From UHGV virus genome UHGV-2113617: a stretch of 64,000 bases of DNA; one strand, given 5' to 3'. This DNA is from a virus. The position numbers were made by a program, and so were the translations under genes. Positions 6,595 to 42,606 of the stretch are shown one piece after another (position 1 is the stretch's first letter; each line of letters starts with the position of its first letter). The notes under the pieces are model-generated. The model was not told the origin of the DNA and did not search any database. It worked only from the letters and a program-made list of their open reading frames with translations.

Positions 6595-7795
6595 ATTTTG
6601 TAATAATGTCAAACTGTTCTTTAAAGCAGAAGCTTGAATCTTGATGCTGATACAAAAATTCATAAGCTTTTTCGCGTTCACGGTCATAAAGAGCTCGGTC
6701 AGATGACAGTTCTTTAATACGTTCAAATGTTGATTCCATGTCGTTTTCATCAAACCAAACGATACCGCTATCATGTGAAATTAATGGAGTGTTATCAACA
6801 CGGAATTTTAAATTTTCGCCAGTAGATTTCCAAAATACCGGAATTGTTCCACATGCACCAAGCTCGAGATGAGTGTATTCTAAAGAACGCTGTAGATATT
6901 TTTTGTCCAACTTACTCAACTGATAACCAAATCCGGATTTACTCATGCGTTCAAGCATTTCGCTATTTACATAACGGTCGAGAATTTGCGTCGGCAAATT
7001 AGGAGCAATTTTAATTTGGTCTACTTGATGAAGACGATAATACTCGTATGGAATTCCTTTTTCTTTAATAGGAATGAACGCTGGAGAACGTTCCAGACCT
7101 TCCATAATAGTACTTAGTCCTGCAGGTTTAAGATGTTTTTCGTGAAAATCAAACATCTGATAAAAGCCTTTCCATGTAGTAGTACGACCAATCCAACGGT
7201 TGATATTCATGTTAATTTCAGAAACATCTTTCCAGTAAGTTGATCGAACCTTCGCAATATCCATAGGAGGCTGAAAGTTATATACGGTCGGTGCTTCTTC
7301 AATATCATCAAACAGAGAAACAGTTTCCGGATACCATTCTTTCATTAAAACTTTATTAAAATCACCATTATCAGAATGGCTAAAAATAACATCAGCTCGA
7401 CGAACAGTTTCTTCTAATCCCAAATTTCGGCGTAAAGAAAGAGAAGAATGGTCATGCTGATAAACTACAACACGAACCGAAGGTTTAATGTTATCAATAA
7501 TTTTTTTATAGTTATTAATGGTGTCTTCTTCGACTGAAGTAGCAGGAACTGAATTGATAACTAGAATATCACAATCATTTACCAGCTTAAGCGTTTTATC
7601 GTATTCTTTTGCCAATAAAACTGGAATTGAAAATGACTTATAATCATGCGCGCAATTACGAGTAAATGATTTATCTTTAGCATAAACCAAAGTTACTTCA
7701 TGGCCATTTTTAGTAAACCAATCACGCTGCTCAAGAGAAAATTTAGTTACACCACAACCTTCAAGACCTCGAGCCATAAAAATGCATACTTTCAT
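6593..7795 (-). CDS. a-gt: DNA alpha-glucosyltransferase
   Basis: 400 aa; N-terminus M(K)VCIFMARGLEGCGVTKFSLEQRDWF as in T4 alpha-gt; same position. Confidence 0.85.
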   Translation of the reverse strand: MKVCIFMARGLEGCGVTKFSLEQRDWFTKNGHEVTLVYAKDKSFTRNCAHDYKSFSIPVLLAKEYDKTLKLVNDCDILVINSVPATSVEEDTINNYKKIIDNIKPSVRVVVYQHDHSSLSLRRNLGLEETVRRADVIFSHSDNGDFNKVLMKEWYPETVSLFDDIEEAPTVYNFQPPMDIAKVRSTYWKDVSEINMNINRWIGRTTTWKGFYQMFDFHEKHLKPAGLSTIMEGLERSPAFIPIKEKGIPYEYYRLHQVDQIKIAPNLPTQILDRYVNSEMLERMSKSGFGYQLSKLDKKYLQRSLEYTHLELGACGTIPVFWKSTGENLKFRVDNTPLISHDSGIVWFDENDMESTFERIKELSSDRALYDREREKAYEFLYQHQDSSFCFKEQFDIITK

Positions 7796-34274: not shown

Positions 34275-34299
34275 TTTACCTCTCCAAGTAATTATGAAT

Positions 34300-34329
34300 A
34301 TACTATCACAATTTTAGGAGAAAGTAAAC
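34300..34329 (-). promoter_or_regulatory. T4-type early promoter upstream of denV remnant
   Basis: Minus strand GTTTACT ttctcctaaaattgtga TAGTAT; near-identical to the promoter at 35359-35388. Confidence 0.55.
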
Positions 34330-34331
34330 TG

Positions 34332-34634
34332 TTATTTACCTTTAATTACTTTAGCTGCTTCGATAGCCGCTTGCTGAAGGTCATCCATAGACATACCGAA
34401 TTTAGAAGCAAAGTTATCAATTTTCTTTTCGACAGCATTCAAAGGCTTGGCCTGTTTACCTTCATTAGCGCCAGGAAGAGCGAGAATACGTTCTTTGTCA
34501 ATATAAAGGCTTACAAGTTTCTTACGGTCTTTATCGGACAAATCATGAAATGAATGGGCCTTTTTATTTATAGCGGCTTCTAATTTACCTGCACTCACTC
34601 GCGCTTCAGTAATAAATTCTTGATATGTTTTCAT
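34332..34634 (-). CDS. ipII: internal head protein II
   Basis: 100 aa; N-terminal capsid-targeting sequence MKTYQEFITEA; adjacent to ipIII and e as in T4. Confidence 0.8.
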   Translation of the reverse strand: MKTYQEFITEARVSAGKLEAAINKKAHSFHDLSDKDRKKLVSLYIDKERILALPGANEGKQAKPLNAVEKKIDNFASKFGMSMDDLQQAAIEAAKVIKGK

Positions 34635-34649
34635 ATGTTTCCTTTAAAT

Positions 34650-34742: not shown

Positions 34743-35321
34743 TTAAGAATTACCACGGGCTGCATTAGCAACGGCGTAAGCGTACTGAACATTAGCGTCT
34801 TTAAACGTACCTTTAGAGGTATCTAGTTCTGCCTTAAAGCCGCCTTTAGTCATAACATCGGCAAATTCTTTGCGGAAAGCCATTGCATCAAGGCTTCTCC
34901 ATGACGATTTGTGCTTGGCGAATTCAAGACCAGCGTAGTTGACAGCCTTAGCTAATTTATTATCAATAACCCATTTACCAGCTTTAGGCACAAACACCGG
35001 GCCTTTCTGTTTAGAGAATAGTTTTAAATTCCAGCGACGAAGTTCACCATCAGCTTTAACAAAAGCTGCGTCCAAGTTACTAGCAACAACATCTTGAATA
35101 TGACCAAATTTAAGCCCATCAACTTCAATATTTAGATCGGTGCGCCAGCGAAGTCCTTCCCAAGCGAAAGCTTTAAAGTCGGAAGCTTTTGTAGCTAAGT
35201 ATCGTTCAATAGGAGCTGTTTTAGGGTCAAAGCCGTTTCCTCGGTAAGTCCACTCATCTTTATTAATGCCTTTGGCCTTTTCCACAGAAGCTTCAGCGAT
35301 AAATTCTTTATACGTTTTCAT
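34743..35321 (-). CDS. ipIII: internal head protein III
   Basis: 192 aa; N-terminal MKTYKEFIAEA capsid-targeting sequence; Lys/Ala-rich. Confidence 0.8.
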   Translation of the reverse strand: MKTYKEFIAEASVEKAKGINKDEWTYRGNGFDPKTAPIERYLATKASDFKAFAWEGLRWRTDLNIEVDGLKFGHIQDVVASNLDAAFVKADGELRRWNLKLFSKQKGPVFVPKAGKWVIDNKLAKAVNYAGLEFAKHKSSWRSLDAMAFRKEFADVMTKGGFKAELDTSKGTFKDANVQYAYAVANAARGNS

Positions 35322-35358
35322 GTGTTTCCTTTAAATATTTTAATTAGTAACTGTGAAT

Positions 35359-35388
35359 ATACTATCACAGTTCTAGGAGAAAGTAAAC
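35359..35388 (-). promoter_or_regulatory. T4-type early promoter upstream of ipIII
   Basis: Minus strand GTTTACT ttctcctagaactgtga TAGTAT. Confidence 0.55.
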
Positions 35389-38936: not shown

Positions 38937-39200
38937 TTATTTCATATTATTAAAATATTCTTCTGCGATTTCGTCGTTATCATGGTAAACTTTAGAAGAC
39001 AGTTTAACATAACCTTCAGCAGTGAACATGTTAATCACAACCTTTACAGTATACCACTGACCATCTTCATTACCCATTACTGCGTAAGTTTCAAACATCG
39101 GATGATCAGGACCGATAACTTTAATATCATTCACTGTACGACCGAAATCTTCTGAAACGCATTTCATAAAGAAGTTGAACAGTTCGCCGTAATTATCCAT
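38937..39200 (-). CDS. hypothetical protein
   Basis: Start at ATG 39200 (GGAG SD), 87 aa; the track's MVLYNYQL extension is promoter sequence. Confidence 0.5.
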   Translation of the reverse strand: MDNYGELFNFFMKCVSEDFGRTVNDIKVIGPDHPMFETYAVMGNEDGQWYTVKVVINMFTAEGYVKLSSKVYHDNDEIAEEYFNNMK

Positions 39201-39252
39201 TTCATTCTCCAAGTTGTTTTTCTGTATCAGTAGTTGATAGTTGTATAGTACC

Positions 39253-39282
39253 ATGGAAGAACGGGGATGTAAACCGTTTTGT
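39253..39282 (-). promoter_or_regulatory. T4-type early promoter (GTTTACA-17-TACTAT)
   Basis: Minus strand cacaaaacgGTTTACA tccccgttcttccatgg TACTAT acaactatcaactac. Confidence 0.55.
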
Positions 39283-39411
39283 GAAAAAATTTTTAAAAAG
39301 TTTTAGGGAATTCTAGGGCAGGGATGGGCAATTAAAGGATAGGATAATATATTATAAAGGGTATAAACTAAATGATGCCTAGAGAGGTCCAGAAAGGCCT
39401 AGATATCAAAA

Positions 39412-39435
39412 AGCCCCAACCTTTCGGTCGAGGCT
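39412..39435 (-). promoter_or_regulatory. stem-loop, 3' flank of ORF 39443-39916 (GNRA loop on transcript)
   Basis: On the minus transcript AGCCUCGACC-GAAA-GGUUGGGGCU, a 10-bp stem with two G-U pairs; part of a 32-bp direct repeat also at 39966-39997. Confidence 0.55.
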
Positions 39436-39442
39436 AAGAATG

Positions 39443-39916
39443 TTATTTGATTTGTTTAGCAGACCAAATGCGGTCTTTGATGATTTTTTGGAGATCTTCA
39501 ACATACTCTAGGTCATGAGCATGTGGATTATCTTTGAAACTATAGGCACGGGCTAATTTTTGGCCTTCGGTTTTAATTACTAAAAGCTCTTTAAGGATAG
39601 CTTCATATTTAGCGATAATTCCTTTAACAATATTTTTTTCTTGTGCAGCTTTAGGATCTGCTTTAGGAGCAGGTTTACCGGAAGGTTTTTCGAAAGCCGC
39701 ACCAGTAGCAACCAGACTTTTCCAGGCGGTGGTAACATAGTTACCCACAAAGCCTTCAGCTCTCATATCGTCGTAGAACTTGTACCGGGATTCGTCAGAA
39801 GCATCTTTATAAGAATATTTACCAGCTTTAATAGCAGCAGTTGCTACAGCGCGAACATCTGAAGCGGATGCTTCATTTAACACCACTTCATTTAAAAATT
39901 GAGCATATGATTTCAT
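39443..39916 (-). CDS. putative packaged internal protein with capsid-targeting-like N-terminus
   Basis: 157 aa; N-terminus MKSYAQFLNEV resembles the IP targeting sequences (MKTYKEFIAEA) with an L-x-E site; own late promoter and GGAAA SD; Lys/Ala-rich. Confidence 0.6.
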   Translation of the reverse strand: MKSYAQFLNEVVLNEASASDVRAVATAAIKAGKYSYKDASDESRYKFYDDMRAEGFVGNYVTTAWKSLVATGAAFEKPSGKPAPKADPKAAQEKNIVKGIIAKYEAILKELLVIKTEGQKLARAYSFKDNPHAHDLEYVEDLQKIIKDRIWSAKQIK

Positions 39917-39955
39917 CTTATTTCCTGTTTTAATTCGTGATTTAATATACTACTA

Positions 39956-39963
39956 TATTTATA
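39956..39963 (-). promoter_or_regulatory. late promoter (TATAAATA) for ORF 39443-39916
   Basis: Exact TATAAATA on the minus strand 40 nt upstream of the ATG. Confidence 0.6.
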
Positions 39964-39969
39964 CCAAAA

Positions 39970-39993
39970 AGCCCCAACCTTTCGGTCGGGGCT
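39970..39993 (-). promoter_or_regulatory. stem-loop, 5' flank of ORF 39443-39916
   Basis: On the minus transcript AGCCCCGACC-GAAA-GGUUGGGGCU; second copy of the 32-bp repeat. Confidence 0.55.
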
Positions 39994-40044
39994 AAGCCTT
40001 GCGGCAACCTTGTCGGGGTTCCACCTGCTAAGGCAAGTGTTTGT

Positions 40045-40136
40045 ACGAAACGCCGGGATTTGAACCCGGTTATTGAGCAGTTGACGCTACTCAATATTTT
40101 TAAAAGGCCATATCTCGACCATATCCGAACGTTCCG
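40045..40136 (-). ncRNA. tRNA-like stable RNA
   Basis: Acceptor-stem pairing (CGGAACG/CGUUUCG) plus canonical T-arm CCGGG-UUCAAAU-CCCGG, but a non-tRNA body of ~60 nt. Confidence 0.4.
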
Positions 40137-40309
40137 TCAAAAACGCTACTCGGCTTACGGCAAAGATATTTCCTCGAATCGATAATTTGGTGCGCCGTTT
40201 CTGCTGTGATGTAAGAGGGCATCAACAAATCATAAAGATTTATTAACACAATTCCTTACCCAGGGAACATCAGTCCGACGACTTACCGGTAGCGACCCGG
40301 TTTCTCATT

Positions 40310-40389: not shown

Positions 40390-41055
40390 TTAAAATTTCA
40401 TTTTTCGACCTTTAAACCATCCTTCTGGAATTGGGTCAGTTTTCTTAATACGTTTAGAAACTTTTTCATCTAATGAATGAATCCACATCATACCAAATTG
40501 AGAATTCTTTTCACCTTGTTGGTGTTTATTTCTGGCGTGAGATTCTTTCATTTTATTAATAGTTTCAGGAGTATGGGTCTTACCCAAGAAAGATTTAGTA
40601 TTTAAAAATTTCTCTCTATACTTAGGATTATCCCAAAGCTGTTTAAACCTTTCTGAACCCATTTTACGATATTTTTCTTTAAGGTCTGGGTCGTTCTCAA
40701 ATCTGGTTTTAAAAGCGGCAGCTCCTTTTAAGGAAGCTTCTTTCTTTTTATCCAAATATTCTTTAGTGTTTAAATGGTCCCAACCACCTTCACCACCTAA
40801 TTTCAAATTATAAACATCAGGGCGCTTTAAAAACTCTTCAGTCACAATATTCTTTTCTGACTCAAACATAGAGGTTTTATCGTCAAAGAACTCTAATATT
40901 TCTTTAGAAAAATTTTCTATACCATACTTGTCTTGGGCTCTTTTTAATAATTTACCAGAACCCATATATCCATCATCTAAATTTTCGGTAGAATGAGCGC
41001 CTATGTAGATTTTATTATTAATTTTATTTGTTATTTTATAAATGTAATGGAACAT
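40390..41055 (-). CDS. segB: GIY-YIG homing endonuclease SegB
   Basis: 221 aa; N-terminal HYIYKITNKINNKIYIGAHS (GIY...YIG); located between tRNA-Arg and the 7-tRNA subcluster as in T4. Confidence 0.85.
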   Translation of the reverse strand: MFHYIYKITNKINNKIYIGAHSTENLDDGYMGSGKLLKRAQDKYGIENFSKEILEFFDDKTSMFESEKNIVTEEFLKRPDVYNLKLGGEGGWDHLNTKEYLDKKKEASLKGAAAFKTRFENDPDLKEKYRKMGSERFKQLWDNPKYREKFLNTKSFLGKTHTPETINKMKESHARNKHQQGEKNSQFGMMWIHSLDEKVSKRIKKTDPIPEGWFKGRKMKF

Positions 41056-41096: not shown

Positions 41097-41168
41097 TGGC
41101 CCTGGGTGGAATTGAACCACCATCTGGCGATTATGAGTCGCTTGCTTGAACCTTCCAGCTACAGGGCC
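41097..41168 (-). tRNA. tRNA-Ile (anticodon CAU; Met not excluded)
   Basis: Manual fold: acceptor GGCCCUG/CAGGGCC, anticodon loop CUCAUAA, T-arm GGUGG-UUCAAUU-CCACC; T4 has a CAU tRNA-Ile here. Confidence 0.75.
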
Positions 41169-42238: not shown

Positions 42239-42266
42239 TTTATTCTCCTCAGTAGTTGATAGGGTA

Positions 42267-42296
42267 ATAGTATCACTACCCTATCTAAAAGTAAAC
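42267..42296 (-). promoter_or_regulatory. T4-type early promoter with embedded stem-loop
   Basis: Minus strand GTTTACT tttagatagggtagtga TACTAT taccctatc; inverted repeat GATAGGGTA/TACCCTATC brackets the -10. Confidence 0.55.
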
Positions 42297-42530
42297 TTAT
42301 TTTTTACGAAAAATTGATTTATTTTCTGCTGCCCATTTTTCAATAACTGCAGCAGGACCAGTAACAACAATTTTATCGCCGTAATCTTCTGCGGCGAGTT
42401 GACCGAAATTATCTAATGCATCACGAAGAACTCCATGAGGCATTTCACCCATTTTATCTTTCTTACCAGTGTAAATAAACTCAACTTTTACATCAGCCGC
42501 TTCATTGATAAATTCTTTGAAAGTTTTCAT
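42297..42530 (-). CDS. internal head protein, ipI-locus variant
   Basis: From ATG 42530 reads MKTFKEFINEA... (77 aa); at the T4 ipI position next to 57B; the track's 99-aa version includes promoter/UTR sequence. Confidence 0.6.
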   Translation of the reverse strand: MKTFKEFINEAADVKVEFIYTGKKDKMGEMPHGVLRDALDNFGQLAAEDYGDKIVVTGPAAVIEKWAAENKSIFRKK

Positions 42531-42564
42531 TTTGATTTCCATTTGGTTTTGTTTTGATAGGGTA

Positions 42565-42594
42565 ATAGTATCACAACTAAAACTCCATGTAAAC
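42565..42594 (-). promoter_or_regulatory. T4-type early promoter upstream of ipI-locus gene
   Basis: Minus strand cacaaagttGTTTACA tggagttttagttgtga TACTAT taccctatc. Confidence 0.55.
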
Positions 42595-42606
42595 AACTTT
42601 GTGAAA

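Follow-up and report, generated by a model that had tools for sequence, protein, structure and literature searches.

A late gene behind the tRNA/rnaC unit of a Tequatrovirus probably encodes an unnamed T4-type internal head protein

The open reading frame (ORF) at 39443-39916 of the virus genome UHGV-2113617, analysed here as one stretch of 64,000 nucleotides (the window), is probably a Tequatrovirus late gene complete in itself. Its product would belong to the T4-type internal (packaged, injected) head proteins as a member not named before, encoded at a third locus. The gene is real and under purifying selection, with dN/dS of 0.03-0.18 among six alleles. An initial annotation of the window had correctly placed the ORF and its length of 157 aa; it lies on the minus strand, which that annotation left out, starts with MKSYAQFLNEVVLNEA and matches phrog_2280 ('unknown function') over its full length (E = 3e-54). 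A Shine-Dalgarno-like AGGA (39923..39926, minus strand), read directly in the sequence, is located 6 nt 5' of the ATG.

The gene is situated between two features of the T4 map. Positions 40044..40182 (minus strand) are occupied by an rnaC-like stable RNA (species 1 RNA), the end gene of the tRNA unit, recognised by eye from its collinearity with T4 rnaC (positions 6909-7047 of the T4 stretch compared); Rfam has no family for it. The adjoining gene downstream is an e.8 homologue (38937..39254, minus strand), served by an early-type promoter of its own at 39273->39245. T4 has no gene between e.8 and rnaC.

The ORF is bracketed by a 36-nt direct repeat at 39403-39438 and 39961-39996 (identity 34/36), within which the 32-bp direct repeat described initially is nested. 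A 30-nt core pattern allowing up to three mismatches finds exactly two sites in the window and none in 100 shuffles. On the transcribed strand both copies form the 10-bp stem and GAAA loop that had been proposed, UUUUU comes next, and the stems include 6-7 G-C pairs, which is the make-up of an intrinsic terminator. The upstream copy (39961..39996, minus strand; stem 39993->39970, GAAA loop, then U-run) is the predicted terminator hairpin of the tRNA/rnaC unit, and the downstream copy (39403..39438, minus strand; stem 39435->39412, GAAA loop, then U-run) that of the ORF itself. The two hairpins have energies of -21.6 and -17.3 kcal/mol (z = -3.6 and -2.6), and both are called terminator-like. 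In a covariation test 92% of cells were paired and the changes were one-sided wobble only, with no two-sided compensatory changes, so the test is uninformative. The annotation of phage RB32 (RB32ORF133c) already carries the remark 'flanked by 34 bp imperfect direct repeat'.

An exact match to the T4-type late promoter -10 element, TATAAATA, occurs at 39956..39963 (minus strand, 39963->39956), its final base lying 40 nt ahead of the start codon, whose A is at 39916, in agreement with the initial annotation. Its opening three bases, TAT, are the final three bases of the upstream repeat. The octamer is found 13 times in the window, against 11.3 +/- 3.2 in shuffles, which is the chance rate without enrichment, and its value is therefore positional. 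It stands 44-48 nt upstream in all Tequatrovirus-type copies examined; in Jiaodavirus KP01 the distance is 44 nt. The one-base variants AATAAATA and CATAAATA come after the hairpin in Mosig-, Marfa- and Winklervirus. In all genera examined a hairpin is followed by the octamer or a one-base variant. A T4 late promoter consists of this octamer at -10 and needs no -35 element, and such a promoter is predicted at 39956-39963. Neither the region directly upstream of the ORF nor either repeat copy has a match to a sigma-70-type early promoter.

Codons 1-10 (39887..39916, minus strand) encode MKSYAQFLNE, a leader resembling a capsid-targeting sequence (CTS) and ending in an L-x-E prohead-protease site. 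In the mutational map of the IPIII CTS, targeting depends on residues 4 and 7 and processing on residues 8 and 10 (PMC9026906). The leader keeps all four of these experimentally defined determinants, with Y4 and F7 (targeting) identical to IPIII and L8 and E10 for processing, and hhalign of the family against IPIII gives an alignment confined to residues 1-10. The leader departs from those of ipI, ipII and ipIII in having Q for E at position 6, and further at positions 3, 5 and 9. When all six frames of the window were scanned with the regular expression M-K-[STA]-[YF]-x-[EQDK]-F-[ILVM]-x-E, four ORFs matched, namely ipII, ipIII, an ipI-like gene and ORF 39443-39916. The claim of a CTS-like leader holds. 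The leader is conserved in orthologues of six genera. Position 4 is aromatic (Y or F) in Mosig-, Marfa- and Tegunavirus, and orthologue leaders have F or I at position 7 and L-x-E at 8-10; the leader of Jiaoda- and Winklervirus has nine residues (MKFKEFL.E), with K at position 4.

Codons 11-15 (39872..39886, minus strand) encode VVLNE, a second L-N-E|A site that belongs to a 15-nt in-frame tandem duplication, traced as the repeat 39871-39880 / 39886-39895 with a spacing of 15 nt. The prohead protease gp21 recognises L/I-x-E (PMC9026906), and cleavage is predicted at L8-N9-E10 and/or at the second site, L13-N14-E15|A. Most Tequatrovirus alleles have the duplicated site, and natural alleles without it exist (SYGD1 reads MKSYAQFLNE|ASASDV). 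The allele of the window is also carried by phages such as RPN226, GRNsp7 and RB27. Alleles of 152, 153 and 157 aa occur; the length differences are confined to the leader and its boundary, where some alleles have M-T-E replacing L/I-x-E. In orthologues the leader is followed by a small residue, whose spacing to the mature domain is conserved. The mature N-terminus was previously given as VVLNEA; the orthologue alignment favours a cut after the second LNE instead, and the more likely predicted N-terminus is A16 (ASASDV...).

The mature part of 142 aa (15.7 kDa, pI 9.3) contains 20 Lys and has a net charge of +6, compared with +5 for IPII and +9 for IPIII. Its AF2 model is all-helical (mean pLDDT 76), and an internal L-K-E site is present at residue 110. 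Pfam and NCBIfam scans of the protein gave no meaningful match, and the family and fold searches of the BLASTp/HHpred type proposed initially returned no functional match. Only T4-like phage proteins, all unnamed, came up when 5.8 billion proteins were searched by word index and 1.84 billion representatives were scanned in full with HMMER. Outside the leader the candidate has no sequence or fold similarity to Ip1-3, which is the pattern of the Ip class, where mature domains are unlike each other and the leader alone is common.

Related sequence is present in 512 of 50,697 phage records searched, 468 of which cover at least 80% of the protein, always with the annotation 'hypothetical'. As a sequence the gene is hence not new, contrary to what had been suggested, and its flanking 34-bp repeat was on record in RB32. 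Full-length orthologues occur in six Tevenvirinae genera (Tequatro-, Mosig-, Jiaoda-, Winkler-, Marfa- and Tegunavirus), with one gene copy per record. The position of the family, just 3' of the tRNA cluster, is the same in Tequatro-, Mosig-, Jiaoda- and Winklervirus; in the stretches examined from Marfa- and Tegunavirus no tRNA is annotated. Within Tequatrovirus the N-terminal domain is mosaic, with two deeply diverged alleles. A second CTS-type gene (B, MKTYAEFLTEAAKLP...) directly follows the present one (A) in 165 phage records. Descent of A and B as paralogues was considered and dropped: BLASTP aligns the leader only and the hhalign probability, over a C-terminal hairpin, is 8%, despite one PHROG that matches both.

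The initial annotation saw in the locus the architecture of a mobile gene cassette. On such a reading promoter, ORF and hairpin would move between hairpin copies, for example as excised circles of the PeSL (promoter-early stem-loop) type, with varying cargo. Part of this stands, namely the bracketing by repeats, the empty site in T4 and the addition of gene B at the same point. T4 has a solo hairpin between rnaC and e.8, and the T2 and RB3 records likewise have a single copy. Mobility is also consistent with Mosigvirus LF82-9, which has a Tequatrovirus-type gene and hairpins, with the co-variation of the two hairpin copies by lineage (GA/AG in Tequatrovirus, TT in Mosigvirus) and with the 3-4 hairpin-like sites of a few genomes, LF82-9 and KMB38 among them. 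In the 7-kb stretches around the gene of LF82-9 and KMB38, however, the two gene-flanking sites are the only ones; the tRNA set of LF82-9 is Tequatrovirus-like too, so that the exchange may have involved a larger segment, and transfer driven by the SegB homing endonuclease is known for this region (cited in PMC4122927). The cassette was found at no other locus and the gene is single in each record; in 386 of 772 records one match spans at least 80% of a 1.5-kb query from e.8 to tRNA-Arg, which indicates the same context. A hairpin scan of IMG/VR gave four contigs only and nothing beyond GenBank phages. The upstream copy, moreover, has an independent role as the predicted terminator of the tRNA/rnaC unit, present as a single copy in T4. 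In distant genera the orthologues also follow the tRNA cluster and the flanking hairpins are not repeats, which points to ancestry plus loss. The mobile-cassette reading is weakly supported and we consider it quite improbable. The polymorphism is more plausibly explained if T4, T2 and RB3 lost the gene when the two hairpins recombined, given that the family keeps the same position in Tequatro-, Mosig-, Jiaoda- and Winklervirus. The T4 hairpin is chimeric, joining the 5' flank of the upstream copy to the 3' flank of the downstream copy, which in a phage without the gene argues for deletion; the precise absence of the gene would be explained by the two hairpin copies serving as substrates of homologous recombination.

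Alternatively, the product might be a late protein of the cytoplasm or of assembly that the virion does not retain. The CTS resemblance would then have been left behind by recombination with ip genes, the leader DNA being a shared homology patch, or the protein would be targeted transiently to the prohead core, like scaffold components that are degraded and expelled. Relative to RB32 the leader differs at 1/45 nt and the body at 55/180 nt, as a recombination patch would, and the L-K-E at residue 110 could permit degradation. The leader is nevertheless kept in six genera despite nucleotide divergence, which implies selection on the peptide and not on the DNA alone; in T4 the 10-residue CTS suffices to package foreign proteins (PMC9026906); and the mature composition mirrors that of the retained IPII and IPIII. 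Mass spectrometry contributes non-specific evidence. The orthologue g140 of phage fD1 (85% identical) was particle-associated at the strict threshold in LC-MS/MS of purified virions (PMC8309999, Table S3), but the preparation was dirty: 113-137 of 277 phage proteins (~41%), DenV, lysozyme e and NudE included, and 672 host proteins were scored likewise, so the detection adds little. That search was fully tryptic and a processed N-terminus could therefore not be seen. An unprocessed N-terminus of the candidate would yield the tryptic peptide SYAQFLNEVVLNEASASDVR and a processed one the semi-tryptic ASASDVR or VVLNEASASDVR; for the fD1 orthologue the corresponding peptides would be SYTQFLNEAVLNEASSTEIQAVAK (unprocessed) and ASSTEIQAVAK or AVLNEASSTEIQAVAK (processed). 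In the accessible supplements of the virion proteome of Jiaodavirus ValerieMcCarty03/04 (PMC13119998) no orthologue peptides were found; the gene may be absent there, as neither phage is among the tblastn matches. A non-retained protein seems unlikely. A chance ORF or mis-annotation without any protein product has nothing in its favour except the absence of a functional annotation, and is refuted by the dN/dS values, the full-length PHROG match and the orthologue peptides detected in fD1, besides the conservation across genera; its probability is negligible.

For an internal head protein, the preferred reading, the following course of events is envisaged. Judged by its terminator features, the upstream hairpin would stop transcripts of the tRNA/rnaC unit in the early and middle phases, and TATAAATA, overlapping the end of this terminator, would drive late gp55-dependent transcription of the ORF, which the second hairpin copy would end; the latter two steps follow from the motifs and their conservation. 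MKSYAQFLNE would act as the capsid-targeting sequence and take the precursor into the prohead scaffolding core, where gp21 would cut after L-N-E10 and/or L-N-E15. The product released would be the 142-aa, 15.7-kDa lysine-rich basic helical protein with the N-terminus ASASDV, and it would stay in the DNA-filled head and enter the cell with the DNA. Targeting, cleavage, packaging and injection are proposed here from the sequence determinants, the orthologue boundaries and one noisy virion proteome. Once injected, the protein may neutralise a host defence, as Ip1, Ip2 and Ip3 do, although an anti-restriction function of the candidate would be pure analogy. A DNA-associated or general role of the mature protein is equally open, being suggested by the cross-genus conservation and the IPII/IPIII-like charge.

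Work published in 2025 (PMC12373910) showed that the T4 internal proteins form a set of injected effectors which inhibit type IV restriction enzymes with high specificity, and Ip1-3 target variants of the GmrSD family of these enzymes. Should the present family be packaged, the catalogue of injected effectors is incomplete, and one of those missing is among the most widespread (512 phage records, six genera), having escaped notice because the model phage T4 deleted the gene. To our knowledge, all interaction tests of Ip1-10 so far drew on the two classical Ip loci only. A more far-reaching and tentative proposal, which we regard as possible though doubtful, is that Tevenvirinae have a third Ip locus after tRNA/rnaC, overlooked because T4 lost it, with the injected family A (phrog_2280) and an optional B, in which A disables a host defence other than GmrSD variants and the mosaic N-terminal domain is the specificity determinant. 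If so, the presence or allele of A would add to host-range differences among therapeutic T4-like phages. The locus is in addition a clean natural example of paired terminators as deletion/insertion end-points in a T4-type accessory region.

Among known systems, PeSL cassettes (Arbiol et al., 2010; Comeau et al., 2014) share with this locus the stem-loop repeats that flank small accessory ORFs, the indel end-points between close relatives that fall in the repeat motifs, and the empty site that retains one copy, here the solo repeat of T4. The candidate repeat differs in having no early promoter, a late TATAAATA abutting the upstream copy only, and its hairpin sequence is unrelated. Circles or movement to other loci were not seen for the candidate cassette. 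RB32ORF133c (GenBank DQ904452; 85% protein identity) is the same gene at the same locus, left as 'hypothetical protein' with its leader unremarked, though the same annotators named Ip7 and Ip9. The papers of the Krisch and Bondy-Denomy groups describe two Ip loci only; Silas et al. (2025), also a source for Ip variants, write of 'the two Ip loci', and Arbiol et al. [quoted passage not shown] A literature search with the locus tags of the gene returned no relevant paper. A list of more than 30 Ip variants, said to have been compiled by Comeau in 2007, may include the candidate family. The T-even internal proteins IPI, IPII and IPIII and the variants Ip4-Ip10+ were reportedly treated by Repoila and others in 1994 and by Mullaney and Black in 1996. 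T4-type Ips and the candidate have in common a leader some 10 residues long (aromatic at position 4, F at position 7, L/I-x-E at positions 8-10) outside which they are dissimilar, a mature protein that is small, basic and rich in lysine, a gene that is non-essential and variably present in close relatives, and short direct repeats that bracket the gene, as they do the ipI-like and ipII/ipIII genes of the window; the candidate is compared at the level of gene and sequence, the Ips themselves being packaged and injected. Unlike the Ips, which the literature places at the ipI or ipII/ipIII locus (a descriptive and not a mechanistic definition), the candidate occupies a third locus from rnaC to e.8. 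Its bracketing repeat is an intrinsic terminator hairpin, whereas the ipI and ipII/III brackets in the window consist of early-promoter motifs, and it has a late promoter only. Most of its Tequatrovirus alleles possess a duplicated protease site, and conservation of the family extends over at least six genera, in contrast to the hypervariable T4-type Ips.

The sequence belongs to a Tequatrovirus, a T4-like phage, and region 38900-40400 matches 772 phage records, among them Escherichia phage vB_EcoM-RPN226 (97.9% identity). On the minus strand the order is ipI-like gene (42297-42530), seven tRNAs, segB (40390-41055), tRNA-Arg, rnaD- and rnaC-like RNAs, the candidate ORF (39916→39443; 157 aa, N-terminus MKSYAQFLNEVVLNEASASDV) and an e.8 homologue (39254→38937). 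An exact late-promoter octamer, TATAAATA, is found at 39963→39956 on the same strand, 40 nt ahead of the candidate ATG, with AGGA 6 nt 5' of the start, and a 36-nt direct repeat (39403-39438 and 39961-39996, 34/36 identical) brackets the gene. ORF, leader, promoter, repeats and hairpins are as described in the initial annotation, which left out only the strand.

Several neighbours deserve comment. The ipI-like gene is drawn out to a TTG at 42596 by ORF listing (42297-42596, 99 aa); its match to the PHROG 'internal virion protein' and its capsid-targeting sequence (CTS) both start at ATG 42530 (77 aa), which is likely the true start. The tRNA at 41097-41168 is tRNA-Met (CAT) according to ARAGORN, and its counterpart in T4 and RB32 carries the annotation tRNA-Ile, anticodon CAU. 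The segB-type gene, inside the tRNA cluster and 0.5 kb upstream of the candidate, encodes a GIY-YIG homing endonuclease. Work cited in PMC4122927 reports that, in mixed infections, the tRNA region is preferentially inherited owing to SegB, and the candidate gene could be co-transferred in this way.

The candidate is a real gene. By tblastn, 512 phage records contain related sequence, and in 468 the match spans at least 80% of the protein; six alleles compared pairwise give dN/dS of 0.03-0.18. The homology search proposed earlier placed the protein in a family, with an end-to-end match to phrog_2280 (E = 3e-54), and gave no named homologue: the family is of 'unknown function' and its database names are 'hypothetical' or 'uncharacterised' throughout. 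RB32ORF133c was annotated by its depositors as 'flanked by 34 bp imperfect direct repeat', so the repeat has been on record, uninterpreted, since the RB32 deposit.

A six-frame scan of the window with the leader pattern M-K-[STA]-[YF]-x-[EQDK]-F-[ILVM]-x-E matches four ORFs, ipII, ipIII, the ipI-like gene and the candidate, which bears out its ranking as a fourth targeting-sequence ORF. In profile comparison with IPIII, residues 1-10 of the family align and nothing beyond. The first 10 residues of IPIII are enough for packaging, residues 4 and 7 chiefly setting targeting and residues 8 and 10 processing, and cleavage by the prohead protease gp21 follows L/I-x-E (PMC9026906, a review of Black's work). 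The candidate leader holds Y4, F7, L8 and E10, and the cleavage site is repeated in residues 11-15 (VVLNE), a 15-nt tandem duplication in the DNA. Natural alleles differ in length at the leader boundary only, e.g., SYGD1 (152 aa, MKSYAQFLNE/ASASDV) and RB27 (153 aa, MKTYAQFLMTE/ASASDV). Orthologues of other genera retain a related leader: MKSYAEFLTE/QSSSDV in APCEc01 (Mosigvirus), MKFKEFLAE/ASSDV in KP01 (Jiaodavirus), MITFNDILAE/GLADV in F48 (Marfavirus), MLEYSEFLKELFCE/ASISDV in fHe-Yen9-01 gp153 (Tegunavirus) and MKFKEFLSE/G... in X20 (Winklervirus). The conserved mature domain always opens a few residues past a Glu plus small residue (orthologue alignment A1); from this constant boundary the mature protein is predicted to begin at A16 (ASASDV), and not at V11 (VVLNEA) as first proposed.

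The predicted mature part has 142 aa (15.7 kDa, pI 9.3, 20 lysines) and a net charge of +6, near IPII (+5) and IPIII (+9) of the same phage. In an AlphaFold2 model of the candidate (mean pLDDT 76, pTM 0.58), three helices form a confident N-terminal domain (residues ~17-75) with an invariant GKYSY...E.R..F motif; a K/P/A-rich linker and a long helical hairpin complete the chain. Against the common Tequatrovirus allele (RB32, L001:3543-4016) the gene is a mosaic. The leader (codons 1-15) differs at 1/45 nt (98% identity), the N-terminal domain at 55/180 nt (69%; dS ~2.4, synonymous sites saturated) and the C-terminal domain at 19/177 nt (89%), a pattern that points to modular exchange with the conserved leader as its anchor. 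The orthologue of Serratia phage X20 (L017:1180-1710) is apparently frameshifted, its C-terminal domain being out of frame with the leader and N-domain; the annotated CDS spans the C-terminal domain only, and the shift could mark a pseudogene or a sequencing error.

The order hairpin, U-run, (T/C/A)ATAAATA and ATG recurs in several genera: KP01 has TATAAATA at -44, APCEc01 has AATAAATA, F48 and X20 have CATAAATA, and in fHe-Yen9-01 TATAAATA precedes a two-gene operon. By count alone the octamer shows no enrichment (13 matches in the window vs 11.3 expected), so its weight lies in the conserved position.

The 30-nt core of the repeat occurs in the window at the two bracketing sites only and in none of 100 shuffles. 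On the transcribed strand both copies form, as initially described, 10-bp hairpin stems capped by GAAA loops (-21.6 and -17.3 kcal/mol); UUUUU comes next in each, and both score as intrinsic terminators. Among 19 copies aligned from ten phages, the upstream ones all have CGCAAGGC (where the rnaC region ends) as 5' flank and lead into TATAAATA; the Tequatrovirus-type downstream ones all have TAACATTC (stop codon plus 5 nt) as 5' flank and lead into TATCTAGG. Judged by these flanks, the upstream copy would thus be the terminator of the tRNA/rnaC unit, its downstream counterpart that of the candidate gene. Downstream copies vary by one-sided transitions within the 5' arm, with G-U or A-U pairing retained. 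Two-sided covariation is absent among the aligned copies, so comparison lends the structure little support, and the case rests on thermodynamics and terminator consensus. Both copies vary together within a lineage (alignment A3: window 39398-39445 and 39956-40003; stretches L013 and L015): stem positions 7-8 are GA or AG in Tequatrovirus copies and TT, an internal mismatch, in both Mosigvirus copies, which hints at homogenisation between copies.

In T4 no gene separates e.8 from rnaC. The interval holds exactly one candidate-type hairpin, a chimera with the 5' flank of the upstream copy and the 3' flank of the downstream copy, the product expected of recombination between the two. One hairpin is likewise present in T2 and RB3, and two in gene-bearing phages. 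Across the phage collection the search for the repeat recovered 811 records and 1281 places. The mobile cassette proposed earlier, a gene roaming between hairpin copies, is improbable: in Tequatro-, Mosig-, Jiaoda- and Winklervirus the family lies next to the tRNA cluster, on its downstream side, tblastn found at most one gene copy in each of the 512 phage records, and the hairpins either side of the KP01 gene are not repeats of each other. In its favour, Escherichia phage LF82-9 (L014), a Mosigvirus, holds a Tequatrovirus-type allele with hairpins and a ten-tRNA cluster, unlike the Mosigviruses APCEc01 and KMB38. This is evidence of inter-genus exchange in the region; however, the LF82-9 tRNA set is Tequatrovirus-like, which makes exchange of a larger segment equally likely. 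BLAST gives four hairpin-like sites in LF82-9, two of them placed. Loss of an ancestral gene in the T4/T2/RB3 lineage fits the distribution better, and the repeats make more sense as a pair of terminators at which a deletion in T4 began and ended.

A second CTS-type gene, gene B, absent from the window, follows the downstream hairpin directly in fPS-90 (g135c, L002:2031-2594) and SH-2; it is also found in L006:840-1403, L008 and L009, and in 165 records overall (85-100% identity). Its product has 187 aa (N-terminus MKTYAEFLTEAAKLP), and its terminal hairpin, with the common sequence GGGCTTTTTGGTATCTAGGCC, differs from that of the candidate. Upstream of gene B AATAAATA is present and exact TATAAATA was not found, so it may be transcribed by read-through from the upstream late promoter. 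With gene B variably present and T4 empty, the site holds zero, one or two CTS-type genes. A B-like Tegunavirus protein, gp154 (MLQYNEFLKESLISE/A), has 24% identity to B (E = 1e-4) and its gene precedes the A-like one. In Yersinia phage fHe-Yen9-01 the two (gp154-gp153, L016:601-1716) form one operon behind a hairpin and TATAAATA, in the reverse of the Tequatrovirus order, and both products carry ML.Y.EFLKE leaders plus a second x-x-E/A site.

The candidate orthologue g140 of Yersinia phage fD1 was scored by virion LC-MS/MS as 'PPAP' (particle-associated, strict threshold; Table S3, Skurnik et al., 2021, PMC8309999). The same list includes DenV, lysozyme e and NudE among 113-137 of 277 phage proteins, plus 672 host proteins, so the odds of packaging rise only a little with this detection. 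A cleaner Jiaodavirus virion proteome bears neither way, as those phages apparently lack the gene.

The observation in the initial annotation is confirmed and its interpretation partly supported: the candidate is probably an unrecognised internal head protein. It would be expressed late, its leader would target the precursor to the head, gp21 would trim it to a 15.7-kDa basic protein, and this would be injected along with the DNA. Prior recognition of the family in Repoila 1994 or Comeau 2007 is possible. The gene widens the set of possible injected effectors and is of moderate interest, mainly because tests of it would cost little.

T-even internal proteins are defined as a class by a common leader and are otherwise unrelated (PMC3012670). 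Three of them, Ip1, Ip2 and Ip3, are inhibitors of GmrSD type IV restriction enzymes, a different one in each case, and for ip4-10 no target is known (PMC12373910). By analogy, the candidate may have an anti-defence role. The known Ip genes of the window are likewise bracketed by short direct repeats, of 41 nt around the ipI-like gene (42256-42296 and 42554-42594) and 43 nt around the ipII+ipIII pair (34287-34329 and 35346-35388); a 47-nt repeat (34603-34649 and 35290-35336) takes in the RBS of ipII and ipIII and the 5' ends that encode their CTS. Their bracketing repeats are T4 early-promoter motifs (GTTTAC...TAGTATA / GATACTAT), whereas that of the candidate is a terminator. Unlike the classical Ips, the candidate lies at a third locus, has a predicted late promoter only, and belongs to a family conserved across genera rather than hypervariable.
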